DNA from: Nitrospinia bacterium
Lineage (GTDB): Bacteria; Nitrospinota; Nitrospinia; JACRGO01
Length of the DNA stretch: 40,634 nucleotides
Direction of reading: 5' to 3'
NCBI GenBank assembly: GCA_029261755.1
Contig: JAJDAS010000068.1
Coordinates: forward strand, 1 to 40,634
Shown here: piece after piece, positions 6,740-26,987 of the stretch
How positions within the stretch are numbered: the stretch's first letter is position 1
Layout: each line of letters opens with the position of its first letter
The notes under the pieces: generated by a model
Seen by the model: only the letters and a program-made list of their open reading frames with translations
Database searches by the model: none
What the model was told of the DNA's origin: nothing
Translations under genes and position numbers: made by a program

Positions 6740-8497
6740 CTATCCTGTTCCACCTTGTTCTTTAACTGCTTCGTTATTTATGGGTAAGAAAAACACGAAG
6801 GTGGTTCCCGAACCAAGCTGACTTTCCGCCTTGATGGAACCTCCATGGGTTTCAATGATTTTTTTCACAATTGCCAAACCAAGTCCGGTACTTTTTTCTC
6901 CACCCGTGGGCTTTGCGCTTAACTTTTGGAATGTACCGAAAAGCTTGCCTTGGTCTTCTTGAGATAAACCAGGCCCTTCGTCCCTGACGCTGACTTTCAC
7001 CATGGAATGCTCTATCTCCATGGATAGGTAAACATTGGAACCCTTGGGAGAGAACTTTATGGCGTTACTTATGAGGTTATCCAGCACTTGAGAAATTTGG
7101 CTTTTATCAAGTGGGATATCCCGGATTTCAGGAAATGACAGGTGAAAAGCCATATTTTTTTTTCTGGCATGAACATCAAAAATGTGGACCCTCTCTCGGC
7201 CCAGCTCGTCAAGAGAACATGGTTCTATATTAAGCTTCAGTTGTCCGCTTTCAATGACGGAAATATCCAAAAGGTGATTTACCAAAGCCAGCATGTGGTC
7301 ACTTGAGGAATAGATAGTTTCTAAAAACTGTTTTTGCTCTTCGGGGGAAAAGTTCCCACCGTCTTCATACAATAGCTCGGAAAATCCGCGTATGTGGCCC
7401 AATGGGTTGCGAAGGTCGTGGGAGGCCATTCCAATAAATTGGTTCTTTAGTTCATTCAGCGCGCGTAAATTTTCATTGGCTTCGCTTAATTCAGTAGTAC
7501 GTTCCTTCACCATTTCCTCCAGCCGAATGTTCTCTTTTTTCGTCCTTTCCAGGTTGATCCGATAAATGGAATAGGTAATGGTTAGAGAGAATAGAATAGT
7601 TAGAAGGGTCGTGGCCACGGCGGTGAAAAAGAGCTTTTGAAGGTTGGCCACATACAAAGTGGCATCGATGAGCAGCATAAGATGGGAGCCTTCAGGGTCG
7701 TTGGGGTTGACGTGGCCGATGATCCGGTAAATATCCTTCCCCTTTTCAGCAGTGAAGCCTCGTTGAGAAATGGTGAACTCAACGCCCAACCTTTTCCCTC
7801 TTCTATCAAGGTTTGTGCTCACCTCCACTTTGCCCTCTCTGTTTAAAATAGCCACTTCCAGGATGCTTTCCGAAGACTTTAAAAAACTCTCCAGAAAGTC
7901 GGAGAAATCAACGGTTTCGAAGACAGACAGGCTGTTGAGGATGGAAGTGGATATTGCGTTTACGAGGTTATAAACATCGGTCCTCATCCGCAATAAAGCC
8001 GCAGATTTGCCTTCTTCCGAGCTATATTCGAATTCGGAAATATCCACAGCCAGATCTATTATGCCAATCAATTCTTTACCTCGTTTCACGGGATGAAAAA
8101 TGGCCAGGACATTAGTCATGTCCCGGATGTCTTGGTAAAAACGGCCAAGGTTTTTTGGGTCCAAAGGATCGAAATCAGGCCGTTGGAACTTTCCCCCAAT
8201 CTCTTTTGCAAACATGGAGTTGAGGATAACGCCATCTTTATTCATATACCGAAACTCAAAAATATCCAGTTCCAAAGAGATGCTTTTGAGCAGGTGCTGT
8301 ATTCCCAACGTATCTTTGATAGCGCTGAACTTGTTAATACTGGAGGAGACGGATTTGTGAACATTTTCGGTGTCAATGCTCAATTGATGGAGGAGAACCC
8401 GTTTTTGGGATATGTAGTTATAAAAAGCCAGTGAAGATAAACAGAGTATGAGGAAGAAGCAGAATATAAAAATATTGTGTTTTTTTATAAATTCCAT
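6740..8497 (-). CDS. Membrane sensor histidine kinase (shared extracytoplasmic sensor domain, paralogue 1)
   Basis: TM1 'IFIFCFFLILCLSSLAF', then an about 260-aa sensor domain, TM2 and a 'YRINLERTKKEN' linker. H-box 'ASHDLRNPL', N-box 'NLISNAIKFSP', G1 'DEGPGL', G2 'GLGLAIVKKI'. Confidence 0.9.
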   Translation of the reverse strand: MEFIKKHNIFIFCFFLILCLSSLAFYNYISQKRVLLHQLSIDTENVHKSVSSSINKFSAIKDTLGIQHLLKSISLELDIFEFRYMNKDGVILNSMFAKEIGGKFQRPDFDPLDPKNLGRFYQDIRDMTNVLAIFHPVKRGKELIGIIDLAVDISEFEYSSEEGKSAALLRMRTDVYNLVNAISTSILNSLSVFETVDFSDFLESFLKSSESILEVAILNREGKVEVSTNLDRRGKRLGVEFTISQRGFTAEKGKDIYRIIGHVNPNDPEGSHLMLLIDATLYVANLQKLFFTAVATTLLTILFSLTITYSIYRINLERTKKENIRLEEMVKERTTELSEANENLRALNELKNQFIGMASHDLRNPLGHIRGFSELLYEDGGNFSPEEQKQFLETIYSSSDHMLALVNHLLDISVIESGQLKLNIEPCSLDELGRERVHIFDVHARKKNMAFHLSFPEIRDIPLDKSQISQVLDNLISNAIKFSPKGSNVYLSMEIEHSMVKVSVRDEGPGLSQEDQGKLFGTFQKLSAKPTGGEKSTGLGLAIVKKIIETHGGSIKAESQLGSGTTFVFFLPINNEAVKEQGGTG

Positions 8498-8676
8498 AGG
8501 CTTTTCTCAAAAAAAGGCAGATTATAGCATAATTGAGCGAAAGTTATAATGGCAGAATCAACTTCAATTTTCACAAAAGAAAAATCAAAATAGTAGGAAA
8601 ATAGCTTAAAAAACAACATTCCGGAACTGCAATTTTATACCTTTCTATCTTTACCAGTTGTAACGTCATTTTTCGT

Positions 8677-8705
8677 TTGACTTATATACCTCAACCCTAT
8701 ATATT
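8677..8705 (+). promoter_or_regulatory. Candidate sigma70 promoter for the hydrogenase operon
   Basis: TTGACT (8677-8682), a 17-nt spacer, then TATATT (8700-8705), about 45 nt upstream of the small-subunit start. Sequence match only. Confidence 0.4.
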
Positions 8706-8747
8706 TTAGGCATGTCATTTCACTTTAACCAAGGAGGTACCGGGAAA

Positions 8748-9656
8748 ATGGGTAAATTTTTGGATAGGAGGGAGTTTCTAAAGTCAATTGGCGTTACCAC
8801 GGCTGGGGTTTCCTTGACTCAGGTATATAATCCCTTGGTGGCCAAAGTCTTTGCCGAGGTCGTGGAAACTGCGCCACCGGTGATCTGGTTCGCTGGGGGG
8901 ACCTGCGGGGGCTGCTCCATTTCGGCTCTGAACGCCATGGACCCTAAGATTGATGAGATTTTACTGAAACTAATCACTCTGCATTACCACATCAATATTA
9001 GCGCGGCCTCTGGCGAAACCCTGATGGAACAGGTCTATGAGGTTATGGAAAAGCATAAAGGAAAATATATTTATGTTCAGGAGGGGGTTATTTCCACAGC
9101 CGCCGAGGGCCGTTTTTGCATAGTGGGAGATTATAAAGGAAAGAAAATCACCATGGTTCAATTGGCCCGGGAGTTGGCTAAAAACGCCCAGGCCGTAGTG
9201 GCTGCGGGAAGTTGCCCTTCCTTTGGTGGTATTCCCTCCGCCAATCCCAACCCAACCGGTGTCAAGCCGTTAAGTGAGTTCACTGACAAGCCGGTGCTGA
9301 ATATTCCAGGTTGCCCTGTTCACCCTGACGATATTTTCGGATCCTTGATCTATTATTTGAAAAACGGACTTCCCGAGCTGGATAAACTGAATCGCCCCAA
9401 ACTGTTTTTTGGCGAAAGTATTCACCAGAAATGTTTTCTCAAGCCTCAATTCGATGCGGAAAATCTGGCTGAGAATTTCGGAGAACAAGGAAAATGCTAC
9501 GCTCTTATGGGATGCTTGGGGCCCAAAACCTATTGCAATTCCTGGAAACGAGGATGGAATGGAAATACCAATTGGTGCGTGAAAAGCGGATCTCACTGCA
9601 TTGCCTGCACGGAACCGACTTTTGCCAAAACCAGATCAGGCCTTTACGCATATTAA
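8748..9656 (+). CDS. [NiFe] hydrogenase small subunit, Tat-exported
   Basis: Twin-arginine signal 'DRREFLKSIGVTTAG'. FeS ligand patterns 'GGTCGGCS', 'GSCPSFGG', 'PGCPVHP', 'HQKC...GKCYALMGC' and 'NWCVKSGSHCIAC'. No C-terminal TM anchor. Start chosen at ATG 8748 (RBS AAGGAGG 8731-8737) rather than the track start 8712. Confidence 0.9.
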   Translation: MGKFLDRREFLKSIGVTTAGVSLTQVYNPLVAKVFAEVVETAPPVIWFAGGTCGGCSISALNAMDPKIDEILLKLITLHYHINISAASGETLMEQVYEVMEKHKGKYIYVQEGVISTAAEGRFCIVGDYKGKKITMVQLARELAKNAQAVVAAGSCPSFGGIPSANPNPTGVKPLSEFTDKPVLNIPGCPVHPDDIFGSLIYYLKNGLPELDKLNRPKLFFGESIHQKCFLKPQFDAENLAENFGEQGKCYALMGCLGPKTYCNSWKRGWNGNTNWCVKSGSHCIACTEPTFAKTRSGLYAY

Positions 9657-9671
9657 AGGGAGGAAAAATAA

Positions 9672-11105
9672 ATGAAAGAAAATAGTTCTAAGAAAAAGGT
9701 TATTACTGTTGATCCGGTGGGCAGAACCGAAGGACATCTTGGGATCACCATCACCATCGAAAACAACAAGGTCACAAGCGCCCAGGCCTTCAGTCCGGTT
9801 TATAGAGGATTCGAAAAAATTATGATCGGCCGCGATCCCAGGGAGGCCCAGGACCTGCCTACTCGAATTTGCGGCGTTTGTCCCATGGTGCATTCCGTCT
9901 GCGGCAATAAAAATCTTGAGATGTTATTCGGCGAGCCTTTTAACGAAAATGCCAGGTTGATGCGAAATATTTCTCACGGCACTCATATGATTGGAGACCA
10001 TGCCCTTCATTTTTTTCATCTGGCGGCCCTGGACTTCGTCAAGGGTCCGGATAAGCCACCTTTTATTCCGAGATACGGCGATGATTTTCGAATTCCCAAA
10101 AAAGAGAATGATGAAATCGTTGGGCACTACATCCAGGCCCTGGAAATCAGGCGGATAGCCCAGGAGGCCGCCACCATCTTTGCCGGCAAACTTCCCCATG
10201 CCATTACTTTCGTTCCAGGTGGCATGACGGAGACGCCCACCAAGGAAAAGATCGCCGCATGGAAAGAACGGTTCAATAAGATGAAGGCGTTCGTAAACGA
10301 CGTCTGGATCAAGGACGTGGAGGCTGTGGCCAAGTTTTATCCCGACTACGCAACAATCGGGAGCGGTCCATCAGACTATTTGAGTTTTGGCGTTTTTGAA
10401 TTGGATAACAAAGACACCAAGCATTACCACAAGCGCGGCTCCTTTATTGACGGCAAATATGAGGAATTGGATATCAAACGTATTACGGAAGATGTCACCC
10501 ATACCTGGCAGGATGGAAAAGATAACAAGAACCCCTTTGACCCGGACACGAAAACAGCGAATCCCGATAAAAAAGATGCTTATAGCTTTATTACAGCCGC
10601 CCGTTATAAGGATCGGGCCATGGAGGTCGGACCTTTCGCCCGTATGAAGGTAGACGGAAAAATGAAGGGACATTCTTCGGTTTTAAACCGCCACATGGCG
10701 CGGGTCCTGGAGGCGCAACATTTGATCCACGGTCTGGAAGAATGGGTGGACGCCTTGGCATTGGGAGAATCGGGAATGATCGAACAAATGCCCGTTCCGG
10801 ATGAGGGTACGAGTTATGGTTTGTCCGAAGCCCCCAGGGGCGCTTGCGGTCACTGGATGAAAGTGAAGGGTGGGAAAATTTCCCATTGGCAGGCCATTCC
10901 AGCCACCAACTGGAACGGTTCCCCCAGGGACGCCAAAGGAAACCTGGGGCCCTTTGAATTGGCTTTAATGGATACACCCATTGCCGATCCCAACGTTCCG
11001 GTGGAGGCCATGAGGGTGGTTCGGTCCTTTGATCCATGCATGGCTTGTGCGGTTCATGTAATTACTCCCGATAGGGATTTGGGGAAGTTTGTCGTGGTAC
11101 CCTAA
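9672..11105 (+). CDS. [NiFe] hydrogenase large subunit
   Basis: N-terminal Ni-Fe ligand motif 'RICGVCPMVH' and C-terminal 'DPCMACAVH', followed by a 15-aa tail (VITPDRDLGKFVVVP) of the kind removed by the maturation protease. 477 aa. RBS GGGAGG upstream. Confidence 0.92.
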   Translation: MKENSSKKKVITVDPVGRTEGHLGITITIENNKVTSAQAFSPVYRGFEKIMIGRDPREAQDLPTRICGVCPMVHSVCGNKNLEMLFGEPFNENARLMRNISHGTHMIGDHALHFFHLAALDFVKGPDKPPFIPRYGDDFRIPKKENDEIVGHYIQALEIRRIAQEAATIFAGKLPHAITFVPGGMTETPTKEKIAAWKERFNKMKAFVNDVWIKDVEAVAKFYPDYATIGSGPSDYLSFGVFELDNKDTKHYHKRGSFIDGKYEELDIKRITEDVTHTWQDGKDNKNPFDPDTKTANPDKKDAYSFITAARYKDRAMEVGPFARMKVDGKMKGHSSVLNRHMARVLEAQHLIHGLEEWVDALALGESGMIEQMPVPDEGTSYGLSEAPRGACGHWMKVKGGKISHWQAIPATNWNGSPRDAKGNLGPFELALMDTPIADPNVPVEAMRVVRSFDPCMACAVHVITPDRDLGKFVVVP

Positions 11106-11182
11106 GGCCTGATTGAGTTTAAAAGAGCATGCGATCCTTAGCGGGGAGAGAAGCCAAAACCAAAAAGAACTAATAAAGTAAT

Positions 11183-11325
11183 AATTTAACGCAGAGGTGC
11201 AGAGAACGCAGAGGCAAACAATAGTGACAAGTAACGAGTGACAAGAAAAACCTGCCGTTACTTGTTACTCGTTACTTGTTACTGCTTTTTTCTCTGCGTC
11301 CTCCGCGACCTCTGCGTTAAAATTG
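11183..11325. repeat. Long imperfect hairpin / REP-like composite repeat
   Basis: Outer arms aatttaacgcagagg (11183-11197) and cctctgcgttaaaattg (11309-11325). Inner arms gtgacaagtaacgagtgacaag (11224-11245) and cttgttactcgttacttgttac (11261-11282) are built of heptamer-like GTNACNA repeats. The element lies between the large-subunit gene and the Uma2 gene. Confidence 0.75.
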
Positions 11326-11398
11326 TCTTCCTTTTTATGGTTCCTTTAAAACTTTAGTTTGAGAAATATTTTTTTTGTCAGTTAACGGAGGACTGTAA

Positions 11399-11959
11399 AT
11401 GCAAACCGCTATCCAAGAAAAGACATATACCTATGAGGATTACCTGGAGACGCCAGACGACAAAAGGTATGAACTCATAAAGGGGGAGTTAATTATGACG
11501 CCAGCACCAAAGCCCTATCATCAATGGATTTCGGAAAACATCCAGTTTGAATTAGGGAAATTTGTCAGGCAAAAAAAAATGGGTAAGGTCTTTGATTCCC
11601 CATGCGATGTTTATTTTGACAATGAAAATGTCCTACAACCGGATATCCTTTTTATTGCAAAGGAAAGACTCGGCATTATTGGCGAAAAGAATATCCATGG
11701 GGCTCCTGATCTTGTTATCGAAATACTGTCCGAGTCAACGGCATATAGGGACCTGGTTCAAAAGAAAAAAATCTACGCGAAATTCGGGGTAAAAGAATAC
11801 TGGATAGTGGACCCTGGAGAAAAAAACGTGGAATTACATGTTTTAAAAGAAGAGTTGTTTGAGCTTGCCGGGCGATTCTCAGAAAATGAAATTTTTCAAT
11901 CCGTGCTGCTTGATGGATTTACCATGAATCTTGAGGATATTTTCACTTCCTGGAAATAA
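11399..11959 (+). CDS. Uma2-family (DUF820) restriction-endonuclease-like protein
   Basis: 'YTYEDYLETPDDKRYELIKGELIMTPAP', 'QPDILFI', 'GAPDLVIEILSEST' and 'KKKIYAKFGVKEYWIVDP' match the Uma2 family pattern. Confidence 0.8.
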   Translation: MQTAIQEKTYTYEDYLETPDDKRYELIKGELIMTPAPKPYHQWISENIQFELGKFVRQKKMGKVFDSPCDVYFDNENVLQPDILFIAKERLGIIGEKNIHGAPDLVIEILSESTAYRDLVQKKKIYAKFGVKEYWIVDPGEKNVELHVLKEELFELAGRFSENEIFQSVLLDGFTMNLEDIFTSWK

Positions 11960-11964
11960 AAATA

Positions 11965-12432
11965 TTGAAAAAAATCCTGGTCCTTGGAATCGGCAATCTG
12001 GTTCAGTCCGATGACGGTTTCGGGGTCCACATAATACGGGAATTGCTCAAGGAAAAAGACACTCTCCCACCCAATGTGGATTTACTGGACGGAGGAACAT
12101 CCATTGTTGACCAAATGGGAGATCTGGCGAACGCCGACCGGTTAATCTGCATAGATGTGGTGGAAGGGGGCGGGGCTCCCGGAACCATCTACCGCTTTAA
12201 ACCGGAAGACATCACATACAAAAAAAGCAAATTCCACCACGCCCATAAGATCTCCATTTTCGACACCCTGGAAATGGTCCGCCATATGAGCAACAAAGCC
12301 CCGGAGGCCATTATTATTGCCGTCCAGCCTGGAAATATTGACTGGGGAACGGAACTTTCCCAGACCCTGAAAAATTCGATCCCGCAAGTACTGGAAATAA
12401 TCCGAAATGAAATTGCGGAAGCACTGGTTTAA
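11965..12432 (+). CDS. [NiFe] hydrogenase maturation endopeptidase (HyaD/HybD/HoxM family)
   Basis: 'KILVLGIGNLVQSDDGFGVH', 'LDGGTSIVD' and 'HHAHKIS' are typical of the family. TTG start. The large subunit carries a cleavable C-terminal tail. Confidence 0.8.
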   Translation: MKKILVLGIGNLVQSDDGFGVHIIRELLKEKDTLPPNVDLLDGGTSIVDQMGDLANADRLICIDVVEGGGAPGTIYRFKPEDITYKKSKFHHAHKISIFDTLEMVRHMSNKAPEAIIIAVQPGNIDWGTELSQTLKNSIPQVLEIIRNEIAEALV

Positions 12433-12490
12433 CATTATCAGGAATTTTTGGCGCGAAAAATGTTCTCACTTTATCTTTCCAGCTATACTA

Positions 12491-12587
12491 AAACCAATTT
12501 GATTTTCGGTTTTTAAAATCAAATTTTGGTTGCAGTTAATGCTTAGCAATTGGTTTCGCTAATTTTAAGATACCGAAAACCAATTGC
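12491..12587. promoter_or_regulatory. Two adjacent inverted repeats sharing an AAACCAATT half-site (candidate operator)
   Basis: IR1: aaaccaatttgatttt (12491-12506) and aaaatcaaattttggtt (12515-12531). IR2: gcaattggtttcg (12546-12558) and cgaaaaccaattgc (12574-12587). That gives four AACCAAT-type half-sites about 90-185 nt upstream of the tetrahaem cytochrome start. Confidence 0.4.
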
Positions 12588-12675
12588 GGTAGAGTATAAA
12601 TGCTTGAAGATATGCACCCTGCATAATATACATAGCAAATCGAACCTGAACTTTATTTATTTTCGGAGAAATGTA

Positions 12676-13275
12676 ATGTCCCCAAAAAAATCTTTTTACT
12701 TTTTCTTTTTTATAGCCAGCTTGTTTTCAGTGTTATCATCCTTTGCTCCATGCTATGCCGAAGACGAGCGTATAGAAATAGAACTGAAGGATACCGCTCC
12801 CATGGCCAATCCCCTGAAGTACGCCCTGGGAGATGCAGAGTATGATAAGGCTATTAAATCCGGAGAATATTCCTACTCCGGAAATTTAAAGTGTCGGTTA
12901 TGCCACCGGGATTTCTTCATGGGTCGGAAAAAAGATCTGCATGAACATACCTTCAAAAAAAGTGTAAAGAAGCATCGGAAGGAAACCCGTTGCTTTCCTT
13001 GCCACAGCACCGGATACGGTATTGAGTCGGGCTTCACCAGTTTGAAAGAGACCCCAAAACTCGCCAATGTTCAATGCGAGGGGTGCCATGGCCCAGGAAG
13101 TAAACATAACATACTTGGCGCCAAGGGCGGCTTCTTGGCCGGGACCGATAAACCCGGCACCATTAAGAAAATGTGCCAAGCCTGCCACAACGCTAGATGG
13201 GACAAGTCTTATAAGGATGTTAACGCCGCATATGAGGTGTATAAAAACGCCGAGGCCGCCGCTACGTTGAAATAA
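12676..13275 (+). CDS. Tetrahaem c-type cytochrome (periplasmic), copy A
   Basis: Signal peptide, then four CXXCH motifs: CRLCH, CFPCH, CEGCH, CQACH. Start taken at ATG 12676 (RBS GGAGA). The track ORF start at 12550 lies in the regulatory repeats and has no signal-peptide logic. Confidence 0.88.
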   Translation: MSPKKSFYFFFFIASLFSVLSSFAPCYAEDERIEIELKDTAPMANPLKYALGDAEYDKAIKSGEYSYSGNLKCRLCHRDFFMGRKKDLHEHTFKKSVKKHRKETRCFPCHSTGYGIESGFTSLKETPKLANVQCEGCHGPGSKHNILGAKGGFLAGTDKPGTIKKMCQACHNARWDKSYKDVNAAYEVYKNAEAAATLK

Positions 13276-13318
13276 CCCAAACCCAGTTTGCAGGAAAGAA
13301 ATGTCCAAGGAGAAACCC

Positions 13319-14470
13319 ATGCGAAAATTAACTATTGCTTTTTTGTTCCCGCTCATGTTTTTTGCTTTTGCCCTTTCCTCTCTTTCAGCTCAAGCGGAAA
13401 AATCCGACCTTGTAAAGCCGGAAAAAAGCCTGGATCTGGACACTCCTGTAGATTGTGGAGAGTGCCATAAAAGGATTTACGAAGAGTGGGTGGGAACCAT
13501 GCACGCGCACTCTACTCCCGCAAAAAACCCCATGGTAAAGGCGTACTATGATTTTTTGCTTAAGGAAAATTACGACACCAGCAAATGCGATAAATGCCAT
13601 GTGCCGTTTCGAGCGCTCTATCCCGAGGAAAAGGATAAAAACGCGAAACTTTTTATGGACGGAGTAAGCTGCCTCTTTTGCCATTCCGTCCATGGGAAAA
13701 ATTCCGGGGACAACCAGGGGATCGATTACTATAAACTGGATTTTTTTAAACCGATCACCGGTCCCACCAAAACCGATAAAAGCGCACATGATTCCAAATT
13801 CCTGGGTTTGTATAAACATGTGGATATATGCTCCGGTTGCCATCAAAGCGGGGAAGCGGAATATTATGCCGAGGGAAAATCCAAGTCTTTGTGCCAGCAA
13901 TGCCACATGCCTTCCATGAGAAAGGTTAAGTCGGCTAAGAATGGGCCTGTACGGGAAAAGGTCTACCAGCATCTTTTCGAAGGGGGGCATTCCCCAATAT
14001 TACTCAGCATGGCCGCAATAATCGAAGGGAAGGCCCAAAAAAAAGACGGCAAAACTATCCTCCATTTAAAGCTGGAAAACTTGTCTCTTCACCGCATTCC
14101 TATTGGATTTCCCTTGCGAGCCATATATGTGAAGGTGACGGCTCTCGATGAAAATGACAATCCCATTTGGTCCAATTATAAAGAACACCCGAAAAACGAA
14201 GACCCCAAAAGCTATTTTGCCCTTTCCTATCCCGAAGAAGAGGCAGTCTATGTGCACTTCGTTAAAAATATTAAGCCGATTAAAGACACCCGTCTGGAAG
14301 CCGCATCTATAAAAAAACTGAGTTATGACGTATCTTCGGACAAAATTGCGGCATTTCAAGTAAAACTCTTTTATCGCCTGTTGCCTGAGTCAGTACAAAA
14401 AAAACTGAATATGGATGAAGCAGTCGCCCAGGAGACGTTGATGTCTGAAGAAACAATAACTATTGATTAG
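13319..14470 (+). CDS. Pentahaem c-type cytochrome with about 170-aa haem-free C-terminal domain, copy A
   Basis: Signal peptide 'MRKLTIAFLFPLMFFAFALSSLSAQA'. Five CXXCH motifs: CGECH, CDKCH, CLFCH, CSGCH, CQQCH. The C-terminal half has no Cys. Start at ATG 13319 (RBS AAGGAGA 13307-13313), matching the N-terminus of the paralogue at 22007. Confidence 0.88.
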   Translation: MRKLTIAFLFPLMFFAFALSSLSAQAEKSDLVKPEKSLDLDTPVDCGECHKRIYEEWVGTMHAHSTPAKNPMVKAYYDFLLKENYDTSKCDKCHVPFRALYPEEKDKNAKLFMDGVSCLFCHSVHGKNSGDNQGIDYYKLDFFKPITGPTKTDKSAHDSKFLGLYKHVDICSGCHQSGEAEYYAEGKSKSLCQQCHMPSMRKVKSAKNGPVREKVYQHLFEGGHSPILLSMAAIIEGKAQKKDGKTILHLKLENLSLHRIPIGFPLRAIYVKVTALDENDNPIWSNYKEHPKNEDPKSYFALSYPEEEAVYVHFVKNIKPIKDTRLEAASIKKLSYDVSSDKIAAFQVKLFYRLLPESVQKKLNMDEAVAQETLMSEETITID

Positions 14471-14537: not shown

Positions 14538-14957
14538 ATGGCGGAAATAACCGCTGATTTTGAAGGCACTTTAGATAAGTTCATGGGTGACGGCGTAATG
14601 GTTTTTTTGGGTGATCCCAAATCGCCCAGTATTGATAAAGATGCTAAAAAGTGTGTTCAAATGGCCATTGAGATGCAAAAAGAGGCCAAGAAAATGAATA
14701 TGGGTGTTCGAATCGGTATTAATTCAGGAATGTGTACGGTGGGGAATTTTGGCAGTAAAAATCGAATGGATTATACAATTATCGGAAGTACCGTCAATCT
14801 TGCGGCTCGTTTGGAAAGAAGCTCCGAACCCGGGCAAATTTCGATTTCCGATTCAACATACCAACTGGTCAAGGACGCGCTTCCTTGTACTCCGAGGGAA
14901 AGTATAACGGTAAAAGGAATTGAAGGTGAGATTGTAACCTATTGGGTTGATGGGTAA
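14538..14957 (+). pseudogene. Truncated class III adenylate/guanylate cyclase catalytic domain (C-terminal part only)
   Basis: The 139-aa ORF begins at 'DKFMGDGVMVF' (second metal Asp region) and continues through 'RIGINSGMCTVGNFGS', 'YTIIGSTVNLAARLE' and 'ITVKG'. The first beta-strand with the FxDIxGFT-type metal Asp is absent, and an in-frame stop lies just upstream of the ATG. Confidence 0.5.
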
Positions 14958-20286: not shown

Positions 20287-20293
20287 CATACCC

Positions 20294-20435
20294 GGAGGCT
20301 CAGCCTCCTGTATGAAAAGGTCAGAAGGTTTCTTTTTCCCAACGCGTTCCCATGAAACATTAGAACCGAAGTTCCTACTTCCTCCACTTAAGAGGCAGAC
20401 CCTCTTAAACTGCATTCCCAGGCTGAGCCTGGGAA
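20294..20435. repeat. Additional short palindromic (REP-like) hairpins
   Basis: ggaggctcagcctcc (20294-20308) and ttcccaggctgagcctgggaa (20415-20435). They use the same cccagg/cctggg and ggagg/cctcc vocabulary as the neighbouring TIRs. Confidence 0.6.
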
Positions 20436-20500
20436 CGAGAGGAGGCTTCAAAAGCCCCTAAAAAAAGCAAATCCCTGTTGAGCTTAAAGGAAAATATCAT

Positions 20501-20869
20501 ATGGCAAGTATATTGGTTATTGATGATGATGAACAGATTTTAATTATGCTTAAGAAGATGCTTGAGCTGGCTGGGTACGAAGTTACTACAGCTAACAACG
20601 GCATAAAAGGGCTCCAACTTTTCCGCCAAAAACAGACTGATTTAGTTATTACAGATATTATTATGCCTGATAAAGAAGGAATAGAGACCATCGGTGACTT
20701 AAAAAAAGAATTTCCTGATGTAAAAATTATTGCAGTATCAGGAGGCGGGATCAATGAAGCTGAACACTATCTGGACATTGCATCCGACTTTGGCGCGGAA
20801 ATGACTTTTGCCAAACCTATAGACAGTAAAAATTTTTTAGAAGGAGTAAAAAAAATCCTATTACACTGA
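20501..20869 (+). CDS. Single-domain response regulator (tandem copy 1)
   Basis: 'ILVIDDDEQIL', 'LVITDIIMPDKEG', 'IIAVSGGG', 'FAKP'. 122 aa. Confidence 0.9.
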   Translation: MASILVIDDDEQILIMLKKMLELAGYEVTTANNGIKGLQLFRQKQTDLVITDIIMPDKEGIETIGDLKKEFPDVKIIAVSGGGINEAEHYLDIASDFGAEMTFAKPIDSKNFLEGVKKILLH

Positions 20870-20901
20870 AATTACCCTAATGTATTAGAGGAAAATATAA
20901 T

Positions 20902-21270
20902 ATGGCAAGTATACTGGTTATTGATGATGATGAACAGATTTTAATTTTGCTTAAAAGTATGCTCAAGCGGCAAGGGCACGAGATTGTTACCGCTAATAAC
21001 GGCGAGGAGGGAATCAAACTTTTCCGTCAAAAACCGACAGATTTGGTTATAACAGATCTTGTTATGCCTGAAAAAGAAGGAATAGAGACTATTATTGAGC
21101 TTAAAAAGGATTTTCCTGACGTGAAAATTATTGCAGTTTCAGGAGGCGGGATTAATGTTGCTGAAAACTACCTGGATGTTGCATCTGATTTTGGCGCGGA
21201 TATGGCTTTTGCCAAACCCTTAGACAGTGAAAAGTTTTTAGAAGGAGTGGGGAAAATCCTGCAACAATAG
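20902..21270 (+). CDS. Single-domain response regulator (tandem copy 2)
   Basis: Same length as copy 1 and near-identical at the 5' end, including the RBS region. 'LVITDLVMPEKEG', 'IIAVSGGG'. Confidence 0.9.
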   Translation: MASILVIDDDEQILILLKSMLKRQGHEIVTANNGEEGIKLFRQKPTDLVITDLVMPEKEGIETIIELKKDFPDVKIIAVSGGGINVAENYLDVASDFGADMAFAKPLDSEKFLEGVGKILQQ

Positions 21271-21338
21271 ATTTTTGTATCACTTATTTCGGGATTCCAC
21301 ATAATAGTGTCGCAGTACTCTTTGCCTGGAGAGGATTT

Positions 21339-21950
21339 ATGGTCAAAAAAAGAACTTTGAATTTTCACCTTATTTTCTTAGTATTTATCTCTCCTTTAAT
21401 TTTCGTTTCCTTCTGTAACGCGCAAGATGACCGCATTGAAGCGGAACTGAAAGACACCTCCCCTTTTGTTAATCCTTTAAAGTCTGCCCTCGGAGACGTT
21501 GCATATGAAAAAGCCATAAAGTCCGGGGAGTATACTTACTCAGGCAATTTAAAATGTCGGTTATGCCACCGGGATTTTTTTATGGGCCGGAAAAAGGACC
21601 TCCATGAACATACCTTCAAAAAAAGCGTAAAAAAACATCGCAAGGAAACCCGATGTTTTCCTTGCCATGCCACGGGTTATGGTATTGACTCGGGCTTCAC
21701 CAGTTTGAAAGAGACCCCAAAACTTGCAAACGTTCAGTGCGAAGGATGCCATGGGCCGGGGCGCAAACATAATGAACTCGGAGCCAAAGGGGGATTTTTA
21801 GCCGGCACGGATAAACCAGACACCATTAAAAAAATGTGCCAGGCGTGTCACAATTCCAGATGGAATAAGTCTTATAAAGACCTGGACACTGCCTACAAGG
21901 CGTATAAAGACGCCGAGGCAGCCGCTATCGCCCCAAGCCCAGGGAAATAG
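21339..21950 (+). CDS. Tetrahaem c-type cytochrome, copy B
   Basis: Signal peptide plus CRLCH, CFPCH, CEGCH, CQACH. Long runs are identical at nucleotide level to copy A, for example cgggcttcaccagtttgaaagagaccccaaaact. Confidence 0.9.
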   Translation: MVKKRTLNFHLIFLVFISPLIFVSFCNAQDDRIEAELKDTSPFVNPLKSALGDVAYEKAIKSGEYTYSGNLKCRLCHRDFFMGRKKDLHEHTFKKSVKKHRKETRCFPCHATGYGIDSGFTSLKETPKLANVQCEGCHGPGRKHNELGAKGGFLAGTDKPDTIKKMCQACHNSRWNKSYKDLDTAYKAYKDAEAAAIAPSPGK

Positions 21951-22006
21951 TAAAAAAGTTTTTTTCTGCGGTCTCTGCGCAGCGTTAAATTATTAAGGAG
22001 AGTCTC

Positions 22007-23164
22007 ATGCGAAAATCAACTTTTGCCCTGTTTTTCCCCATTTTGTTTTTTGCATGCATTCTTTTGCCCTCTTCGGTTTGCGCGGAAAAGTCCGCTGTAG
22101 TGAAACCACAAAAAAGCATTGCCCTCGGCACGCCCGAAACCTGTGGCGCATGCCATACAAGGATTTTACAGGAGTGGTCCGGCGCCATGCATGCGAAGGC
22201 GGATCCCGAAAAAGATCCCATCGTGGGGGCCTACTATAAATATTTCTCCGAAAAAAAAATCGACACCGGGAAATGCGATAAATGCCATGCCCCAATCCGC
22301 GCCCTTTATCCGGTAGAAACCAAAGGAAACATGGAACTCAAAAAGGCCGGCGTGAACTGTATCTTCTGCCACTCGATTTATGGAAAGAACCCCGGAGAAA
22401 AACATGGAATAGATTTTTACAAGCTCGACCTCCTGAAATCACCTGCGGGCGCGTCTAAAAATAAGGAAAAAGAGGAAGCCCACAATGCGGAATTTGTGGG
22501 TATTTTCAAACATGTGGATATATGCGCCGGGTGCCACCAGGGTGGGGAAACCGACTATTACGCAAAAGGAAAACCCAAGACCCTCTGCCAACAATGCCAC
22601 ATGCCGACGAAAAAAAATATGAAGTTGGCTGATGATGGCCCGGTGCGGGAAAAAGTCTATCGCCATCTTTTCGAAGGCGGGCATTCTGAAACCTTGCTAA
22701 ACTTGGCGGCCAGTGTTGAGGGGGGGGCAAGGAAAGAGAACGACAAAACTATACTAAATCTTTCCGTGGAAAATTTTGCCGTGCACGACATTCCGGCCGG
22801 GTTTCCTCTAAGGGCTATTTATTTGAAAGTGGTGGGCCTTGATAAGAACCAAAAGCCTGTTTGGTCCAATTATGAGAAAGACCCGAAAACGGAAGACCCT
22901 TCAGGTTATTTTGCCTTGCATTTTCAAGAAGAAGATGAGCCCTATGTCCATTATGTGAAAGATGTAAAACCCATTAAGGACACACGTTTGAAAGCCTCCG
23001 CTATTGAAGAGCTTACCTATGAGGTCCCGTCGGACAAGGTGGAGACTTTTCAGGTCCGACTTTATTATCGGTTGTTGCCCAAAAGCGTTATCCAAAAGCT
23101 AGAAATCGAGGGGGAATTCCCCAGGGAAACTTTGATGTTTGAAGCTACTGTTTATGTTAATTAA
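22007..23164 (+). CDS. Pentahaem c-type cytochrome, copy B1
   Basis: Signal peptide. CGACH, CDKCH, CIFCH, CAGCH, CQQCH. The haem-free C-terminal domain is paralogous to 13319-14470. Confidence 0.9.
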   Translation: MRKSTFALFFPILFFACILLPSSVCAEKSAVVKPQKSIALGTPETCGACHTRILQEWSGAMHAKADPEKDPIVGAYYKYFSEKKIDTGKCDKCHAPIRALYPVETKGNMELKKAGVNCIFCHSIYGKNPGEKHGIDFYKLDLLKSPAGASKNKEKEEAHNAEFVGIFKHVDICAGCHQGGETDYYAKGKPKTLCQQCHMPTKKNMKLADDGPVREKVYRHLFEGGHSETLLNLAASVEGGARKENDKTILNLSVENFAVHDIPAGFPLRAIYLKVVGLDKNQKPVWSNYEKDPKTEDPSGYFALHFQEEDEPYVHYVKDVKPIKDTRLKASAIEELTYEVPSDKVETFQVRLYYRLLPKSVIQKLEIEGEFPRETLMFEATVYVN

Positions 23165-23319
23165 TATACTTTTTTCGTAACTACTCAGGTGAAAAAGTCG
23201 AAGGCTGAGGGCTAAAGTAAATCAAGTATATCGAAATACCTTAATCAAACTATTCATAACCTTTTGAGTGCTTTTTCCTTCAGCTTTCAGTCTGAACACC
23301 TTAGCACTTACCTTTTTTC

Positions 23320-24498
23320 TTGAATACTGTGCTTTCCATTAAAAAAAATCCCTTCTATTTTTCTTTTCCGTTAGTTATACTTCTCTGTTTTATTTCCCAT
23401 TTCCCTGTTGACGCCAAGGAAAACAAGGTCATCTCCAAGCCTCCCGAAAGTTCCGGGCTGCCTTCCTCGGCTTCCTGCGGAACAGAGGATTGTCATACAC
23501 GGATCTTTAAAGAATGGTCCAAAACCATGCACTCGCAATCCTCTCCGCAAAAAGACCCATTGGTAAAGGCTTTTTATGGCTACTTGGCAAAAGAAAATTA
23601 CGATACCGGGGAATGTGACGTATGCCACGTTCCCATGCGATCGGTTTATTCGAAGGAAAAAGAAAAAAACTCAGCCTTTTTTGATGAAGGGGTAAACTGT
23701 GTCTTTTGTCATTCCATTTATGGGAAAACGGCGGAGGGTGGGAAGGGATTGCATTATTATCATCTGGATTTCCTGAAACCTCTCACGGGTCCCACAAAAA
23801 CGGGCAAGGAGGCGCATGATGCCGAATTTATCGGCATGTTTAAAAAGGTAGATATATGCGCGGGTTGCCATCAAAACGGGGAAATGGAATATGCCACCAA
23901 AGGGAAAACGAAGTCTCCTTGCCAGCAATGCCACATGCCTTCTAAAAAGAAGCTAAAGTCCGCAGATATGGGTAAGGTCCGCGAAAAAGTTCACAGGCAT
24001 CTCTTTGAGGGGGGGCACTCGGAGTTATTGCTCAGTATGGCCGTTATTGTTTCCGGCGAGGCTCGAAGAGATGGCGGCAAAACCATAGTGGTGATCACCC
24101 TGGAAAATCCATCCCTCCACCCCATACCCATTGGATTCCCCCTCCGGGCCATTTATATGAAGGTGGTGGGTCTTGATGAAAATGAAGAACCGGTTTGGAC
24201 CAATTATCAGGCAAATCCCAAAAAAGAGGCGGCGGACGCCTACTTCGCCCTGTTTTTTCCGGAAGAGGATGAAGTTTATGTACACTGCGTTAAAGACATC
24301 AAGCCGGTTAAGGACACAAGGTTGCAGGCTTCTTCTACCAGGGAGTTCTCCCTTGAAGTCCCCTCGGAAAAGATAGAGACTCTACAAGTTCAGCTCTTTT
24401 ACCGTCTGCTGCCCGAGACCATCCTTAAAAAGCTGAATGTTGATGAGGCCCATGCTCCGGAGGTCCTGATGCTGGAGGAAACGATTTATGTGGATTAA
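23320..24498 (+). CDS. Pentahaem c-type cytochrome, copy B2 (first site is CX4CH)
   Basis: TTG start per the ORF track, so the exact start is uncertain. 'CGTEDCH' replaces the first CXXCH, followed by CDVCH, CVFCH, CAGCH, CQQCH. The C-terminal domain is conserved with the other two paralogues. Confidence 0.85.
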   Translation: MNTVLSIKKNPFYFSFPLVILLCFISHFPVDAKENKVISKPPESSGLPSSASCGTEDCHTRIFKEWSKTMHSQSSPQKDPLVKAFYGYLAKENYDTGECDVCHVPMRSVYSKEKEKNSAFFDEGVNCVFCHSIYGKTAEGGKGLHYYHLDFLKPLTGPTKTGKEAHDAEFIGMFKKVDICAGCHQNGEMEYATKGKTKSPCQQCHMPSKKKLKSADMGKVREKVHRHLFEGGHSELLLSMAVIVSGEARRDGGKTIVVITLENPSLHPIPIGFPLRAIYMKVVGLDENEEPVWTNYQANPKKEAADAYFALFFPEEDEVYVHCVKDIKPVKDTRLQASSTREFSLEVPSEKIETLQVQLFYRLLPETILKKLNVDEAHAPEVLMLEETIYVD

Positions 24499-26987
24499 TG
24501 ATGGAATTTTTTAAAAAGCACAACATTACCATTCTCTGTCTCACCCTCATCATCTCTCTATCTTCCCTCGCCGTTTATAATTATTTCCATCAGAAAGATA
24601 TCCTCCTCCAGCAATTAAACGTGGATACGGACAATATTGTCCAATCCGTGACCTCCAGTATTTCCAAGTTTTCGGCCATCAAGGACGTAATGAACATCCA
24701 GGACCTGATCAAGAACATCTCCTTAAAACTGGATATTTTTGAATTTCGTTACCTGGATAAAGACGGAATCATTCTGAATTCCATGTTTACGGAGGAAATC
24801 GGGAAAAAGTTTGAACGTCCCAATTTCGACATCTCGGATAAAAGCAAACTTGGAGAATTTTATCAGGATGAACGGGACATGACCAGTGTCCTTGCCATCT
24901 CCTTCCCGGTAAACAGGGATGAAGAGTTAATAAGTATTGTAGACCTTGCGGTGGATATTTCAGAATTCGATTATACTTCCGAGGAAGCCAAAGAGGCATC
25001 CATTCAAAGGATGCAAACGGACGTCACCAACTTGGTTAATTCAATTGCGAGTTCCGTCCTGACCAGCCTTTCCATTATTGAAACCGTAGATTTCTTCGAC
25101 TTTTTGAATAACTTCCTTAAATCTACGGAAAATATCGTGGAAGTGGCCATACTCGATAAAGACGGGAAAGTGACGGTGAGCAGCAACCCGGAAAGGACCG
25201 GCAAAGACCTGGGGAAGGAAACTACCCAAACCCAAAGGGGATTTATGGTTGAACAGGGGAAAGATATTTATAGGATTATCGACCACATCGATCCTGACAA
25301 ACCCGAGGGTAGCCATCTTATGCTGCTTATAGACGCCACTTCCTATGTCTCCAACGTAAGGCAAATGCTTTATACGGCCATTGCTACCTCCCTGTTCACC
25401 ATCATCTTTGCATTGACCATCGCCTATTCCATTTACCGGATTAACCTGGAAAGGGCCAAAAAGGAAAACGCGTGCTTGGAGGCAAAGGTCAAGGAAAGGA
25501 CCAAGGAGGTTGGGGACATCCTGGACAACGTGGGACAAAGCATACTAACCGTTTCGGAAGACCTGATAGTCAATCCGGAATATTCGCTGACATCCGAAGA
25601 GATCTTTGAGCAAAAACCTGCCGGGATATCTGTGGAGAAGCTTTTGTACCAGACTGAGGAGGGTGAAACAACCTTCAAAGATTGGGCAAATTTTGTCTTT
25701 GGTGACGACAGGCTAATAGATATGGACGGTCTGATTGATATTGCCGACAAAGAGATCACTATCACAGTTGGAGAAAAAAACAAAATCATCCACGCCGAGT
25801 ATCGCCCCATTTATGAAGAAGGATCGGAAAAGGTTAAAAAAATAATGTTGGTTTTAACGGATATAACTCAGCAAAAAGAAATGGAGGCCCAAAACGCCAA
25901 GGAAAGAGAAGAGCACGAACAAGTGGTCAAAATCTTAAGAGACCAGGACTCCTTCTTTTCTTTTCTCAATGATTCGAAGACTATCATTCAAGACGCTGAG
26001 CGGATTCTCGAAAAGTTGATGGAGGAAGAAATGGATCACACTCCTTTAATCAACGAATTATTTAGGGGAATGCATACCATCAAAGGAACGGCTGCGGTAT
26101 TTTCCATTCACAATGTCTCTTTACTAGCCCACGATATTGAAAACACCTTTAACGATATCCGCCAAAAGAAAGAGAAAATAGAGCCGGAGCTTACAGAAGA
26201 TTTGCGGGAAAAAATCCAAAAACTTTTTGATAACCTGGAGGGCGTTGTCACAACCTTGGGCCAACTTGTGGGAGAATCCTTTGGAACAGGGCATAAGGTA
26301 GTTAAGGTCAAGGAAGAAAAAATTACCTCCTTCAGGAAATTACTGGAAGATGCCAAGGCGTCTGATAGCATCCGCAAAGAACTTACCCAGGGTTTCCGAG
26401 ACCTACTTAAAGTCCCCATTGGTAGGGCCTTCCGCAAATTCCCGGAAATGGCGCAGCTCACGGCGGAAAAACTCGGCAAGGCGGTACATTTGGAAGTTAT
26501 AGGAGGAGACCTGGAAATAGAAAAAGAAATAGAAGACATCCTCAGCGCACCCATGACTCATATAATCCGTAATTCCGTGGACCACGGTATAGAAGACCCT
26601 TCGGGCAGGGCCATGATGGAAAAACCGGAGACAGGGTCGGTTATTGTGGATTGTAAATTGGAAGAAAATCATGTGGTCATCCGAATTAAGGATGATGGCA
26701 AGGGAATTGACCCGGAAGTGATTAAAAAATTGGTTTTGAAAAAAGGCTTTATGCCTGAGGCAGAGGTTGCCAAGCTATCGGACCAGGAGGCCATTTTTCT
26801 TATTTTTCATCCGGGCTTCAGTTCCAAAGAAGAGACCACCGACCTTTCCGGACGAGGGGTCGGCATGGACGTGGTGAGGACGGAAGTGGAAAAATGCGGT
26901 GGCACCGTGGAGCTGGAGAGCGAGGTCATGAAAGGAACTACCATTACTTTAAGAATTCCTGAATCCATCCAAAGCGCGACTGGCTAA
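24498..26987 (+). CDS. Membrane sensor fused to a CheA-type kinase core (shared sensor domain, paralogue 3): HPt + CheA-like ATPase, no CheW-like domain
   Basis: The N-terminal about 330 aa are paralogous to the other two kinases. HPt motif 'FRGMHTIKGTAAVFS' (His codon 26073-26075). CheA-style core: 'VPIGRAFRKFPEMAQLTAEKLGKAVHLEVIGGDLEIEKEI', 'HIIRNSVDHGIE', 'DDGKGID', 'SGRGVGMDVV'. The protein ends about 30 aa after the G2 box, and no HisKA H-box is present. ATG 24498 overlaps the upstream TAA by 1 nt; an alternative ATG is at 24501. Confidence 0.85.
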   Translation: MMEFFKKHNITILCLTLIISLSSLAVYNYFHQKDILLQQLNVDTDNIVQSVTSSISKFSAIKDVMNIQDLIKNISLKLDIFEFRYLDKDGIILNSMFTEEIGKKFERPNFDISDKSKLGEFYQDERDMTSVLAISFPVNRDEELISIVDLAVDISEFDYTSEEAKEASIQRMQTDVTNLVNSIASSVLTSLSIIETVDFFDFLNNFLKSTENIVEVAILDKDGKVTVSSNPERTGKDLGKETTQTQRGFMVEQGKDIYRIIDHIDPDKPEGSHLMLLIDATSYVSNVRQMLYTAIATSLFTIIFALTIAYSIYRINLERAKKENACLEAKVKERTKEVGDILDNVGQSILTVSEDLIVNPEYSLTSEEIFEQKPAGISVEKLLYQTEEGETTFKDWANFVFGDDRLIDMDGLIDIADKEITITVGEKNKIIHAEYRPIYEEGSEKVKKIMLVLTDITQQKEMEAQNAKEREEHEQVVKILRDQDSFFSFLNDSKTIIQDAERILEKLMEEEMDHTPLINELFRGMHTIKGTAAVFSIHNVSLLAHDIENTFNDIRQKKEKIEPELTEDLREKIQKLFDNLEGVVTTLGQLVGESFGTGHKVVKVKEEKITSFRKLLEDAKASDSIRKELTQGFRDLLKVPIGRAFRKFPEMAQLTAEKLGKAVHLEVIGGDLEIEKEIEDILSAPMTHIIRNSVDHGIEDPSGRAMMEKPETGSVIVDCKLEENHVVIRIKDDGKGIDPEVIKKLVLKKGFMPEAEVAKLSDQEAIFLIFHPGFSSKEETTDLSGRGVGMDVVRTEVEKCGGTVELESEVMKGTTITLRIPESIQSATG

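Follow-up and report, generated by a model that had tools for sequence, protein, structure and literature searches.

A c554-type tetrahaem cytochrome and a cofactor-free dCache domain as a candidate two-protein periplasmic receptor

Introduction

Which periplasmic signal is perceived by three related membrane sensors of a Nitrospinia bacterium, and do the multihaem cytochromes encoded beside them take part in perceiving it? The question is raised by a 40,634-nt stretch of DNA (contig JAJDAS010000068.1 of assembly GCA_029261755.1; this whole stretch is called the window here), which holds a dense island of signalling and redox genes, among them a [NiFe]-hydrogenase, tetrahaem and pentahaem cytochromes, and three sensor kinases with a common N-terminal module (Table 1). 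How chemolithotrophs living at redox interfaces perceive the availability of electron donors and acceptors beyond the cytoplasm is poorly understood. To our knowledge, known extracytoplasmic Cache sensors bind small molecules, and haem sensors are mostly cytoplasmic or hold the haem inside the sensor domain.

A preliminary description of the locus had proposed that the cytochromes and the sensor domain act together to report periplasmic electron flux or H2 oxidation into a branched phosphorelay. Here, the open reading frames (ORFs) of the window were listed and translated, families were assigned with Pfam, NCBIfam and Rfam, and the sensor and the cytochromes were followed through genomes and metagenomes. 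The analysis points to the tetrahaem cytochrome as the conserved partner of the sensor. We estimate a probability of roughly 0.55 that this cytochrome and the cofactor-free dCache domain constitute a two-protein periplasmic receptor with interchangeable outputs, in which the tetrahaem protein serves as co-sensor.

Results

A tetrahaem cytochrome gene directly precedes the sensor gene

When genomes, one for each species, were scanned with the sensor, 71 loci were obtained, of which 45 belong to Campylobacterota, 23 to Gammaproteobacteria or Pseudomonadota, one to Nitrospirae and two (L001, L002) to a single Nitrospinota metagenome-assembled genome (MAG), the closest relative at 78% identity. 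When the window cytochromes were run by tblastn against these loci, a tetrahaem homologue was found directly upstream of the sensor gene and on the same strand in 68 of the 71 (41-61% identity, with E 1e-47 to 1e-72 for full-length matches). The three loci without it are the two Nitrospinota loci and one contig that begins inside the sensor gene. At the ORF level the two genes lie very close together (median gap about 2 nt), with an overlap of 1-4 nt in 21 of 61 pairs, and in six gammaproteobacterial loci the cytochrome gene is present twice in tandem. Because the flanking genes vary between loci, only the tetrahaem-sensor pair itself is conserved; in Sulfurimonas, for instance, it is placed between rplM-rpsI and addAB-like genes. 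Hydrogenase genes were not detected beside the paired loci of this 71-locus set. A compact two-gene operon, the pair is carried by Sulfurimonas crateris (P0068) and, in a complete genome, by Sulfurimonas sp. CS5 (locus L044).

Sensor homologues in the protein database are nearly all GGDEF diguanylate cyclases of 505-533 amino acids (aa) from gammaproteobacterial MAGs and Sulfurimonas, and the pairing persists across outputs: GGDEF in most loci, a methyl-accepting chemotaxis protein (MCP) in two metagenome loci (L152, L158), an Hpt kinase in the Nitrospirae locus (L003), and the kinases of the window. The Nitrospirae protein has the same Hpt and HATPase_c architecture as kinase 3 and adjoins a tetrahaem gene, and the first 322 aa of the MCP sensors are 53% identical to the window sensor. 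A reciprocal metagenome scan, seeded with the tetrahaem cytochrome, revealed the sensor immediately downstream of 9 of the 12 close tetrahaem orthologues, or 9 of the 10 that could be assessed: of the other three, two lie on contigs that end too early and one precedes an unrelated convergent gene. Next to the distant c554-like hits of the same scan, no sensor was found (0 of 68). Taken together, the tetrahaem-sensor pairing is near-obligate and translationally coupled, across four phyla and across outputs, and the association of sensor homologues with multihaem cytochromes that the preliminary description had proposed to look for is borne out by 68 of 71 loci.

Two further gene contexts of the pair were observed. 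At L006 (6049-11557) and L021 (4750-9974), both from Chromatiales MAGs, the pair comes directly after a decahaem cytochrome gene and a larger one, all in the same orientation. The upstream genes of L006 match MtrA-like cytochromes and the MtrB/PioB porin family (Pfam E 1.5e-108), and those of L021 match L006 by size and haem count only; this context is suggestive of a connection to an outer-membrane electron conduit. At L026 (11608-14275), and also at L028, L036 and L059, all from Sulfurimonadaceae, the pair is followed by convergent cytochrome genes with 8 and 11 CXXCH motifs and by a monohaem protein.

Co-divergence and a natural fusion of cytochrome and sensor

Cytochrome and sensor diverge in step: the correlation between their distance matrices is r = 0.88, as compared with r = 0.90 for the sensor and its own fused GGDEF domain; the partial correlation of cytochrome and sensor, controlling for GGDEF, is 0.55 (Mantel p 0.001).

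The two domains are also found in a single chain. P0205, a fusion protein of 980 aa from the MAG GCA_030643045.1 (locus L160, 121-3063), comprises in order a signal peptide, a c554-like domain, two transmembrane (TM) helices, a dCache relative, a further TM helix, HAMP, HisKA and HATPase_c. Its c554-like domain has six CXXCH motifs and matches the window tetrahaem over residues 47-190 of the latter (E 2e-31). Its dCache is one of only 24 sensor relatives found across a library of 1.84 billion proteins (E 7e-13) and, by eye, keeps E81, R83 and R125 of the sensor, with Glu in place of D148 and D152. Judged by the positions of hydrophobic segments, the cytochrome domain and the dCache would both be periplasmic. 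The gene after P0205 encodes REC, GAF and HD domains.

Synteny, independence of output, the reciprocal search and this fusion all speak for a coupling of cytochrome and sensor, as had been supposed, with the correction that the partner is the tetrahaem and not the pentahaem protein.

Elsewhere, c554-like domains are fused to peroxiredoxin or redoxin, DsbA-like and UshA-like (seleno)proteins (P0213-P0233; NCBIfam NF041198), and the c554-like tetrahaem module has apparently been reused widely for electron input in the periplasm.

The pentahaem cytochromes as a lineage-specific addition

No pentahaem homologue was detected by tblastn in any of the 68 tetrahaem-sensor loci, and the conserved partner is therefore the tetrahaem protein. 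The sole pentahaem hit among the genome loci lies in Nitrospinota L001, which has no tetrahaem gene; on this distribution, the pentahaem is a lineage-specific addition to the pair. In a phmmer comparison, the window pentahaem matches PDB 5ze8, the low-potential pentahaem c552 of Thermochromatium tepidum, at E 4.6e-30, with residues 50-135 and 186-369 covering both parts of the chain. This c552 is grouped with ExtKL and with sPHC of cable bacteria, in a family whose C-terminal domain is immunoglobulin-like (PMC11976967). By similarity, the window pentahaems belong to the c552/ExtKL/sPHC family, and their haem-free C-terminal domain is its immunoglobulin-like domain. A catalytic role resembling that of MccSep was also considered; in the translations, the C-terminal half holds no Cys in pentahaems 1 and 2 and one in copy 3. 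Contact with the sensor through this haem-free domain, as first suggested, is not supported: no homologue of the protein was detected in any of the paired loci, and the domain is one known from an electron-transfer family.

The tetrahaem cytochrome groups with cytochrome c554

The two window tetrahaems score 46.7 and 44.2 bits against PF13435 (Cytochrome_C554; cut-off 20.8). Their best solved relative is Nitrosomonas europaea c554, with a single-sequence E of 3.3e-6, and the family profile matches 1bvb at E 3.1e-11 with the four haem motifs aligned in order; the tetrahaem can thus be assigned to the c554 family on sequence similarity. The family numbers about 290 clusters, whose records read 'cytochrome c family protein', 'multiheme c-type cytochrome' or 'hypothetical'. 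Outside the haem motifs, the only invariant His residues are H89 and H144, and since there are four haems to be served, one or two of them may not be bis-His. Other invariant features are M166, Y65, Y189, W175 and a GGFLAG loop.

The sensor domain is a predicted, divergent dCache without cysteine

The N-terminal modules common to the three membrane proteins span about 335 aa, with a periplasmic region of about 265 aa between two TM helices. Residues 1-323 of copy 2 were modelled with AlphaFold2 from an alignment of 24 homologues, giving a mean pLDDT (predicted local distance difference test) of 82.6. The model has a helix at 8-63, strands at 79-152, a helix at 161-195, strands at 212-278 and a helix at 280-322; that is, a long stalk helix, two PAS-like alpha/beta modules split by a long helix, and the second TM helix. 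Foldseek against the PDB returned as top hits nearly all dCache ligand-binding domains (Mlp24, Mlp37, PctA/B, TlpQ, DctB, KinD), the best E being 2e-7 and the probability 1.0. The Pfam Cache families (dCache_1, sCache_3_2, Cache_WalK) score below threshold, at best 16.9 bits for dCache_1 against a cut-off of 45. This dCache-like fold combined with sub-threshold family scores identifies a divergent dCache subfamily, and answers in the affirmative the earlier question of whether structure prediction would place the domain among the dCaches. An exhaustive phmmer search of 1.84 billion cluster representatives found only 24 sensor relatives at E < 1e-3, and the family is therefore small and sharply bounded. 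By eye, no Trp-containing amino-acid-binding motif of the PMC8915833 type was seen.

Outside TM1, the only Cys residue of the sensors is C326 of copy 3, which belongs to the cytoplasmic linker. The periplasmic region of all three copies has zero Cys and zero CXXCH, in agreement with the first reading of the sequence, which rules out a sensor domain that carries haem c itself.

Three paralogous sensors with different outputs

The three N-terminal modules are 63-81% identical, confirming their proposed paralogy. Over about 360 aa, copy 1 shares 65% identity with copy 2 and 63% with copy 3. Copies 2 and 3 are closer to each other, with 81% identity across 335 aa and 83% in the DNA, where the similarity begins 15 nt before the ATG. 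The cytochrome genes are likewise duplicated, the tetrahaems being 77% identical in amino acids and 81% in nucleotides and the three pentahaems 53-56% in amino acids; the longest identical stretch between the two cassettes is 35 nt, not 34 as originally counted.

According to Pfam, copy 1 has HisKA and HATPase_c, copy 2 has HisKA, HATPase_c and two receiver domains, and copy 3 has Hpt (E 1e-10) and HATPase_c (E 9e-20), corresponding to the P1 and P4 domains of CheA. Neither an H-kinase_dim (P3) nor a CheW-like (P5) domain was found in copy 3 by Pfam, even with the threshold relaxed to E 0.1. Of the three outputs previously assigned, the HisKA kinase and the hybrid kinase stand, and 'CheA-type' is half true for the third. 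The three outputs and the many receiver proteins make a branched relay plausible from gene content.

The settings of the copies were described broadly correctly, with some amendments. Copy 3 does follow a tetrahaem gene and two pentahaem-type genes, and the stop codon of the last overlaps the kinase start as TAATG (24496-24500), as stated; the third cytochrome of this row, taken for a pentahaem, has four CXXCH motifs and one CX4CH (CGTEDCH). Copy 2 comes after its tetrahaem and pentahaem genes in the order given, though not directly, a 694-nt gap with a truncated cyclase fragment lying between pentahaem 1 and kinase 2. That redox genes flank every copy holds poorly for copy 1, which has no cytochrome of its own, and the claim is weakened further by the orphan sensor copies of the closest relative (L001, L002), which are not next to a hydrogenase.

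A soluble periplasmic hydrogenase and the link to H2

The window hydrogenase falls in a NiFeSe-like clade, respiratory NiFeSe-like types being its best NCBIfam family matches, and it has the Tat (twin-arginine translocation) motif, C-terminal CxxC nickel site and TIGR00072 maturation protease of group 1 periplasmic [NiFe]-hydrogenases. As the large subunit ends in DPCMAC, the enzyme has Cys and not selenocysteine. In the translations, it has neither a cytochrome b gene nor a C-terminal anchor on the small subunit. The periplasmic hydrogenases of Desulfovibrio use soluble cytochrome c3, and by this analogy, with no cytochrome b and no anchor of its own, the window hydrogenase would need a soluble cytochrome as acceptor.

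The closest tetrahaem relatives are 62-68% identical, and their metagenome loci (L152, L154, L157, L158) were examined. L152 and L158 have the order hydrogenase, protease, tetrahaem, pentahaem, sensor-MCP, the hydrogenase being represented by both subunits in L152 and by the large one in L158, whose next gene upstream carries no annotation. L157 has the protease, two radical-SAM (S-adenosylmethionine) genes, the tetrahaem and the pentahaem before the contig ends. In L154, the tetrahaem lies beside hypFBEDCA with a pentahaem (44% identical) among them, and there is no sensor within 10 kb. Cassette 1 of the window shares the order hydrogenase, tetrahaem, pentahaem, sensor, broken by an Uma2-family gene and the cyclase remnant. 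The Uma2 gene parts the large subunit from the protease and is preceded by a hairpin with 33-nt arms (11216-11290); it looks inserted, given that the protease directly follows the large subunit in L152 and L158. Redox or H2 sensing, as originally suggested, is therefore plausible for the clade of the window, the hydrogenase-tetrahaem-pentahaem order recurring in three metagenome loci, two of them with the sensor.

Beside the hydrogenase and cytochrome genes, two radical-SAM genes were noted at L157 (1269-4087) and L152 (2917-5590), one fused to a HupF/HypC domain and the other with a BATS domain, which is unusual next to a [NiFe]-hydrogenase.

Discussion

A candidate mechanism

We infer physical contact between the two proteins, redox state as the signal and, in the window, the hydrogenase as electron source. 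The soluble tetrahaem cytochrome would equilibrate with periplasmic electron carriers and take up their redox state. In the clade of the window, the electrons would be released from H2 by the [NiFe]-hydrogenase, a soluble enzyme exported by the Tat pathway, and the pentahaem would probably act as an additional carrier. For Sulfurimonas and the MAGs of Gammaproteobacteria, the donor would be whatever reduces the periplasmic cytochrome pool. The tetrahaem would dock on the dCache dimer, where its redox state would alter the complex and switch the output, a form of contact signalling resembling that of LuxP on the double-PDC domain of LuxQ (PMC8534201). The consequence would be cyclic di-GMP synthesis in most lineages, a chemoreceptor response in L152 and L158, and in the window signalling through three kinases and several receivers.

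Several observations weigh against such a receptor. Co-divergence is also expected from simple co-inheritance. The P0205 fusion is a singleton from one MAG contig, and a search with its cytochrome-plus-dCache part returned no second cytochrome-dCache fusion, its hits being solely c554-like domains joined to peroxiredoxin- or DsbA-like proteins. Four sensor paralogues stand without a neighbouring cytochrome gene, namely copy 1 of the window and three in the Nitrospinota MAG, of which two are in L001 and one in L002, and the tetrahaem also occurs with no sensor nearby (L154, L081), from which it follows that it has a plain electron-carrier life as well. The AlphaFold2 model of the tetrahaem, from 45 homologues, is poor (pLDDT 59.5, haem core below 50); Foldseek matched it to PARP and phycobiliprotein at E > 1, which is noise. 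Finally, the invariant polar and charged residues of the sensor (E81, R83, E99, R125, D126, D148, D152) are in the membrane-distal module, where, by predicted secondary structure, they would sit at the usual small-ligand site of dCaches.

Alternative explanations

The tetrahaem might instead sense a haem ligand, with nitric oxide (NO), sulfide, O2 or CO binding at an open or weakly ligated haem and the ligand-bound form modulating the dCache, which would make it a periplasmic counterpart of H-NOX or NosP proteins. We consider this unlikely, although several features fit it. With H89 and H144 there are two invariant non-motif His for four haems, and the four haem motifs match those of c554, in which three haems are bis-His and one, haem 2, is five-coordinate and reacts with NO. 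H89 corresponds to the c554 His located 12 residues after the first CXXCH and H144 lies about three residues from another c554 His; we take these c554 residues to be distal ligands. The order of a haem protein gene followed by a histidine kinase or diguanylate cyclase gene mirrors hnoX operons, and by their record titles the hosts come from oxic-anoxic, sulfidic or nitrate interfaces. Coordination, however, is unreadable from sequence, and any of the invariant M166, Y65, Y189 or W175 could be a ligand; the structure model of the cytochrome is too poor to be of use here, and hydrogenase-linked operons better fit an electron carrier.

A further possibility, which we judge to be quite improbable, is that the dCache binds a small molecule alone and that the cytochrome is co-encoded through a shared physiological process, for instance as the protein that oxidises or reduces this compound or as part of the pathway under control of the signal, with no signalling complex. 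The membrane-distal polar residues, the small-molecule-binding dCaches that are the nearest structural neighbours, and the loci with a cytochrome and no sensor are what this would lead one to expect. Co-membership of a pathway nevertheless hardly explains a near-obligate, coupled pairing with five output types in four phyla, at loci whose flanking genes are otherwise unrelated, and GGDEF and MCP outputs do not regulate transcription of neighbouring genes. P0205 moreover unites both domains in one receptor, and the sensor both falls below the Pfam dCache_1 threshold and lacks, by eye, the Trp-type amino-acid motif.

Very improbable, finally, is a scheme in which the kinases only regulate the adjoining cytochrome and hydrogenase genes in response to an unrelated cue: the adjacency of copies 2 and 3 could come from one segmental duplication and copy 1, like many regulators, points away from the hydrogenase promoter region, yet the adjacency extends beyond the window to 68 of 71 loci, the partners are mostly diguanylate cyclases or chemoreceptors and not transcription-controlling kinases, and the reciprocal search and the fusion agree with coupling, so that mere regulation of cytochrome expression, a possibility raised at the outset, is largely refuted.

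Relation to known systems

In the literature searched, with subscription journals mostly outside its coverage, we found no account of a c554-like cytochrome paired with a Cache sensor. Returning to the tetrahaem-dCache receptor that we favour, its gene order recalls H-NOX/HnoK, the H-NOX-associated diguanylate cyclases and NosP/NahK, in which a small haem protein encoded just upstream controls a histidine kinase or diguanylate cyclase in trans. Those haem proteins are cytoplasmic, have H-NOX or NosP folds and carry a single haem b, whereas here the haems are covalent and a periplasmic four-haem c554-type protein would act on a dCache. In the regulatory hydrogenases HoxBC and HupUV, H2 oxidation is coupled to the histidine kinases HoxJ and HupT by protein contact. 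These are cytoplasmic group 2b sensory enzymes working without a cytochrome; HoxBC has no Tat signal and HoxJ is a soluble PAS kinase, whereas the window has a Tat-exported hydrogenase of respiratory type and membrane kinases, and soluble cytochromes would form the link to the periplasmic dCache. Cytochrome c554 of N. europaea (1bvb, 1ft5) has its four haem motifs in the same order as the tetrahaem, but it is a shuttle from hydroxylamine oxidoreductase with no receptor link, its C-terminal third is unrelated, and the present family has its own invariant GGFLAG loop and an RW motif.

Periplasmic c-type haem serves as a sensory cofactor, with MCP, histidine kinase or GGDEF outputs, in the PAS-haem chemoreceptors GSU0582/GSU0935 of Geobacter, in Desulfovibrio DcrA and in the sCache_heme (DUF3365) family, which has haem c within the sensor (PMC12889525). 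In all of these the CXXCH is inside the sensor domain; the dCache described here is Cys-free and the haems are on a separate protein, P0205 being the exception. For TorC of E. coli, a multihaem c-type cytochrome, a passage of PMC8534201 citing Ansaldi et al. 1999 reports binding to the periplasmic domain of TorS and modulation of the kinase. That case differs in the all-helical TorS sensor, in the membrane anchor of TorC and in inhibition by the immature apo form only, which is a maturation checkpoint rather than a redox signal, and it has no conserved, dedicated cytochrome-sensor gene pair.

As in the pair of the window, the kinases of LuxP/LuxQ, HptA/HptS and TorT/TorS perceive their signal via a separately encoded periplasmic partner; LuxQ recognises autoinducer-2 (AI-2) through LuxP (PMC8534201). 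The likeness to the LuxPQ type extends to a double-PDC or dCache-type domain with no cofactor of its own and to a partner gene directly upstream in the same operon. There, however, the partner has a binding-protein fold and brings a metabolite, where here it is a multihaem cytochrome that would bring electrons or a haem ligand; in addition, the present outputs extend to GGDEF and MCP, and the complex itself is a proposal. None of the compared systems joins a dedicated multihaem cytochrome to a cofactor-free dCache, and the set into which the pair falls is that of accessory-protein-dependent, haem-based extracytoplasmic sensors.

A broader proposition, which we advance tentatively and with some doubt, is that the tetrahaem-dCache pair represents an unrecognised receptor class tapping the periplasmic electron chain and passing multihaem redox poise to cyclic di-GMP, chemotaxis and phosphorelays in chemolithotrophs that oxidise sulfur, hydrogen and possibly iron; in the lineage of the window it would be plugged into a hydrogenase, for H2 sensing (and H2 taxis in the MCP relatives) without a regulatory hydrogenase. 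If true, this would constitute a new route from periplasmic electron flux to second-messenger, chemotaxis and phosphorelay signals and would give a role to an uncharacterised cytochrome family, with the hydrogenase-linked versions as candidates for H2 sensing or H2 taxis. Synteny, fusion and independence of output make a strong, testable case for an undescribed and widespread sensory module.

Layout of the window and additional features

Coordinates of the features discussed above are collected in Table 1.

Table 1. Features of the signalling and redox island, with positions in the 40,634-nt window.
Feature	Position	Strand	Basis
Sensor module of kinase 1: TM1, dCache-like periplasmic domain, TM2, linker	7493..8497	-	alignment
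Kinase 1, full gene; HisKA and HATPase_c output, no cytochrome gene of its own, divergent from hydrogenase operon	6740-8497	-	Pfam
[NiFe]-hydrogenase, periplasmic	8712..11105	+	NCBIfam, translations
Hydrogenase small subunit, Tat motif RREFLK	8712-9656	+	
Hydrogenase large subunit, C-terminal DPCMAC	9672-11105	+	
Uma2-family endonuclease gene	11399..11959	+	Pfam
Hydrogenase maturation protease, HybD/HycI type	11965..12432	+	NCBIfam TIGR00072, E 2.4e-39
Tetrahaem cytochrome 1, c554 family, Sec signal peptide, 4 CXXCH	12670..13275	+	Pfam PF13435, 1bvb profile match
Pentahaem cytochrome 1, c552/ExtKL 'PHC' family, 5 CXXCH and C-terminal domain	13301..14470	+	PDB 5ze8
Truncated class III nucleotidyl cyclase fragment (profile positions 55-182 only)	14538..14957	+	Pfam PF00211
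Hybrid sensor kinase 2: sensor module 15165-16169, HisKA, HATPase_c, two receivers	15165..17681	+	
Single-domain response regulator, after kinase 2	17693-18073	+	
Two tandem single-domain CheY-like receiver genes (20501-20869, 20902-21270)	20501..21270	+	Pfam
Tetrahaem cytochrome 2, c554 family	21339..21950	+	
Pentahaem cytochrome 2, PHC family	22007..23164	+	
Pentahaem-type cytochrome 3, 4 CXXCH and CX4CH	23320..24498	+	haem motifs
Sensor kinase 3: sensor module 24498-25505, Hpt, HATPase_c	24498..26987	+	Pfam, alignment

The ORF of tetrahaem 1 as called by program starts at a TTG (12550); from the signal peptide and the alignment of homologues, the true start is probably the ATG at 12670. The tandem receiver genes share the strand of tetrahaem 2 and end 68 nt before it, and Pfam places further receiver-protein genes at 27107-28780, 28963-30387 and 30452-31690. 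The cyclase fragment is probably a remnant, by its truncated profile match; its identity to the intact REC-cyclase (28963-30387) is no more than 30%, and hence it is not a recent copy of that gene.

A promoter and terminator scan of 8300-27200 gave no enrichment over shuffles, so that operon boundaries are read from gene spacing. Two copies of a 41-nt direct repeat (85% identical), at 15031-15071, about 100 nt upstream of kinase 2, and at 19825-19865, contain TTGACT-N17-TAACCT; the generic promoter scan did not list this repeat, which may be a shared promoter or operator. The second copy is in the intergenic region 19535-20500, which separates a GAF kinase from the receiver genes and also holds the Rfam Acido-Lenti-1 RNA motif twice on opposite strands (20025-20070 on the minus and 20177-20222 on the plus strand) and a 39-nt inverted repeat (20269-20307 / 20392-20430).

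Convergent with kinase 1 is an ORF of 358 aa (5641-6717) with an N-terminal Tat-like motif, TRKVFLEG, followed by a hydrophobic stretch, for which Pfam and NCBIfam gave no match. At the far end of the window, 38000-40634 has a G+C content of 0.37, as against about 0.44 elsewhere, with no ORF longer than 65 aa and no Rfam hit at the gathering threshold. At the other end, a group II intron was noted at 44-1934, with Rfam D1-D4 RNA at 44-299 (126 bits) and an ORF of 480 aa (492-1934) that, from reading the translation alone, resembles an intron reverse transcriptase/maturase.

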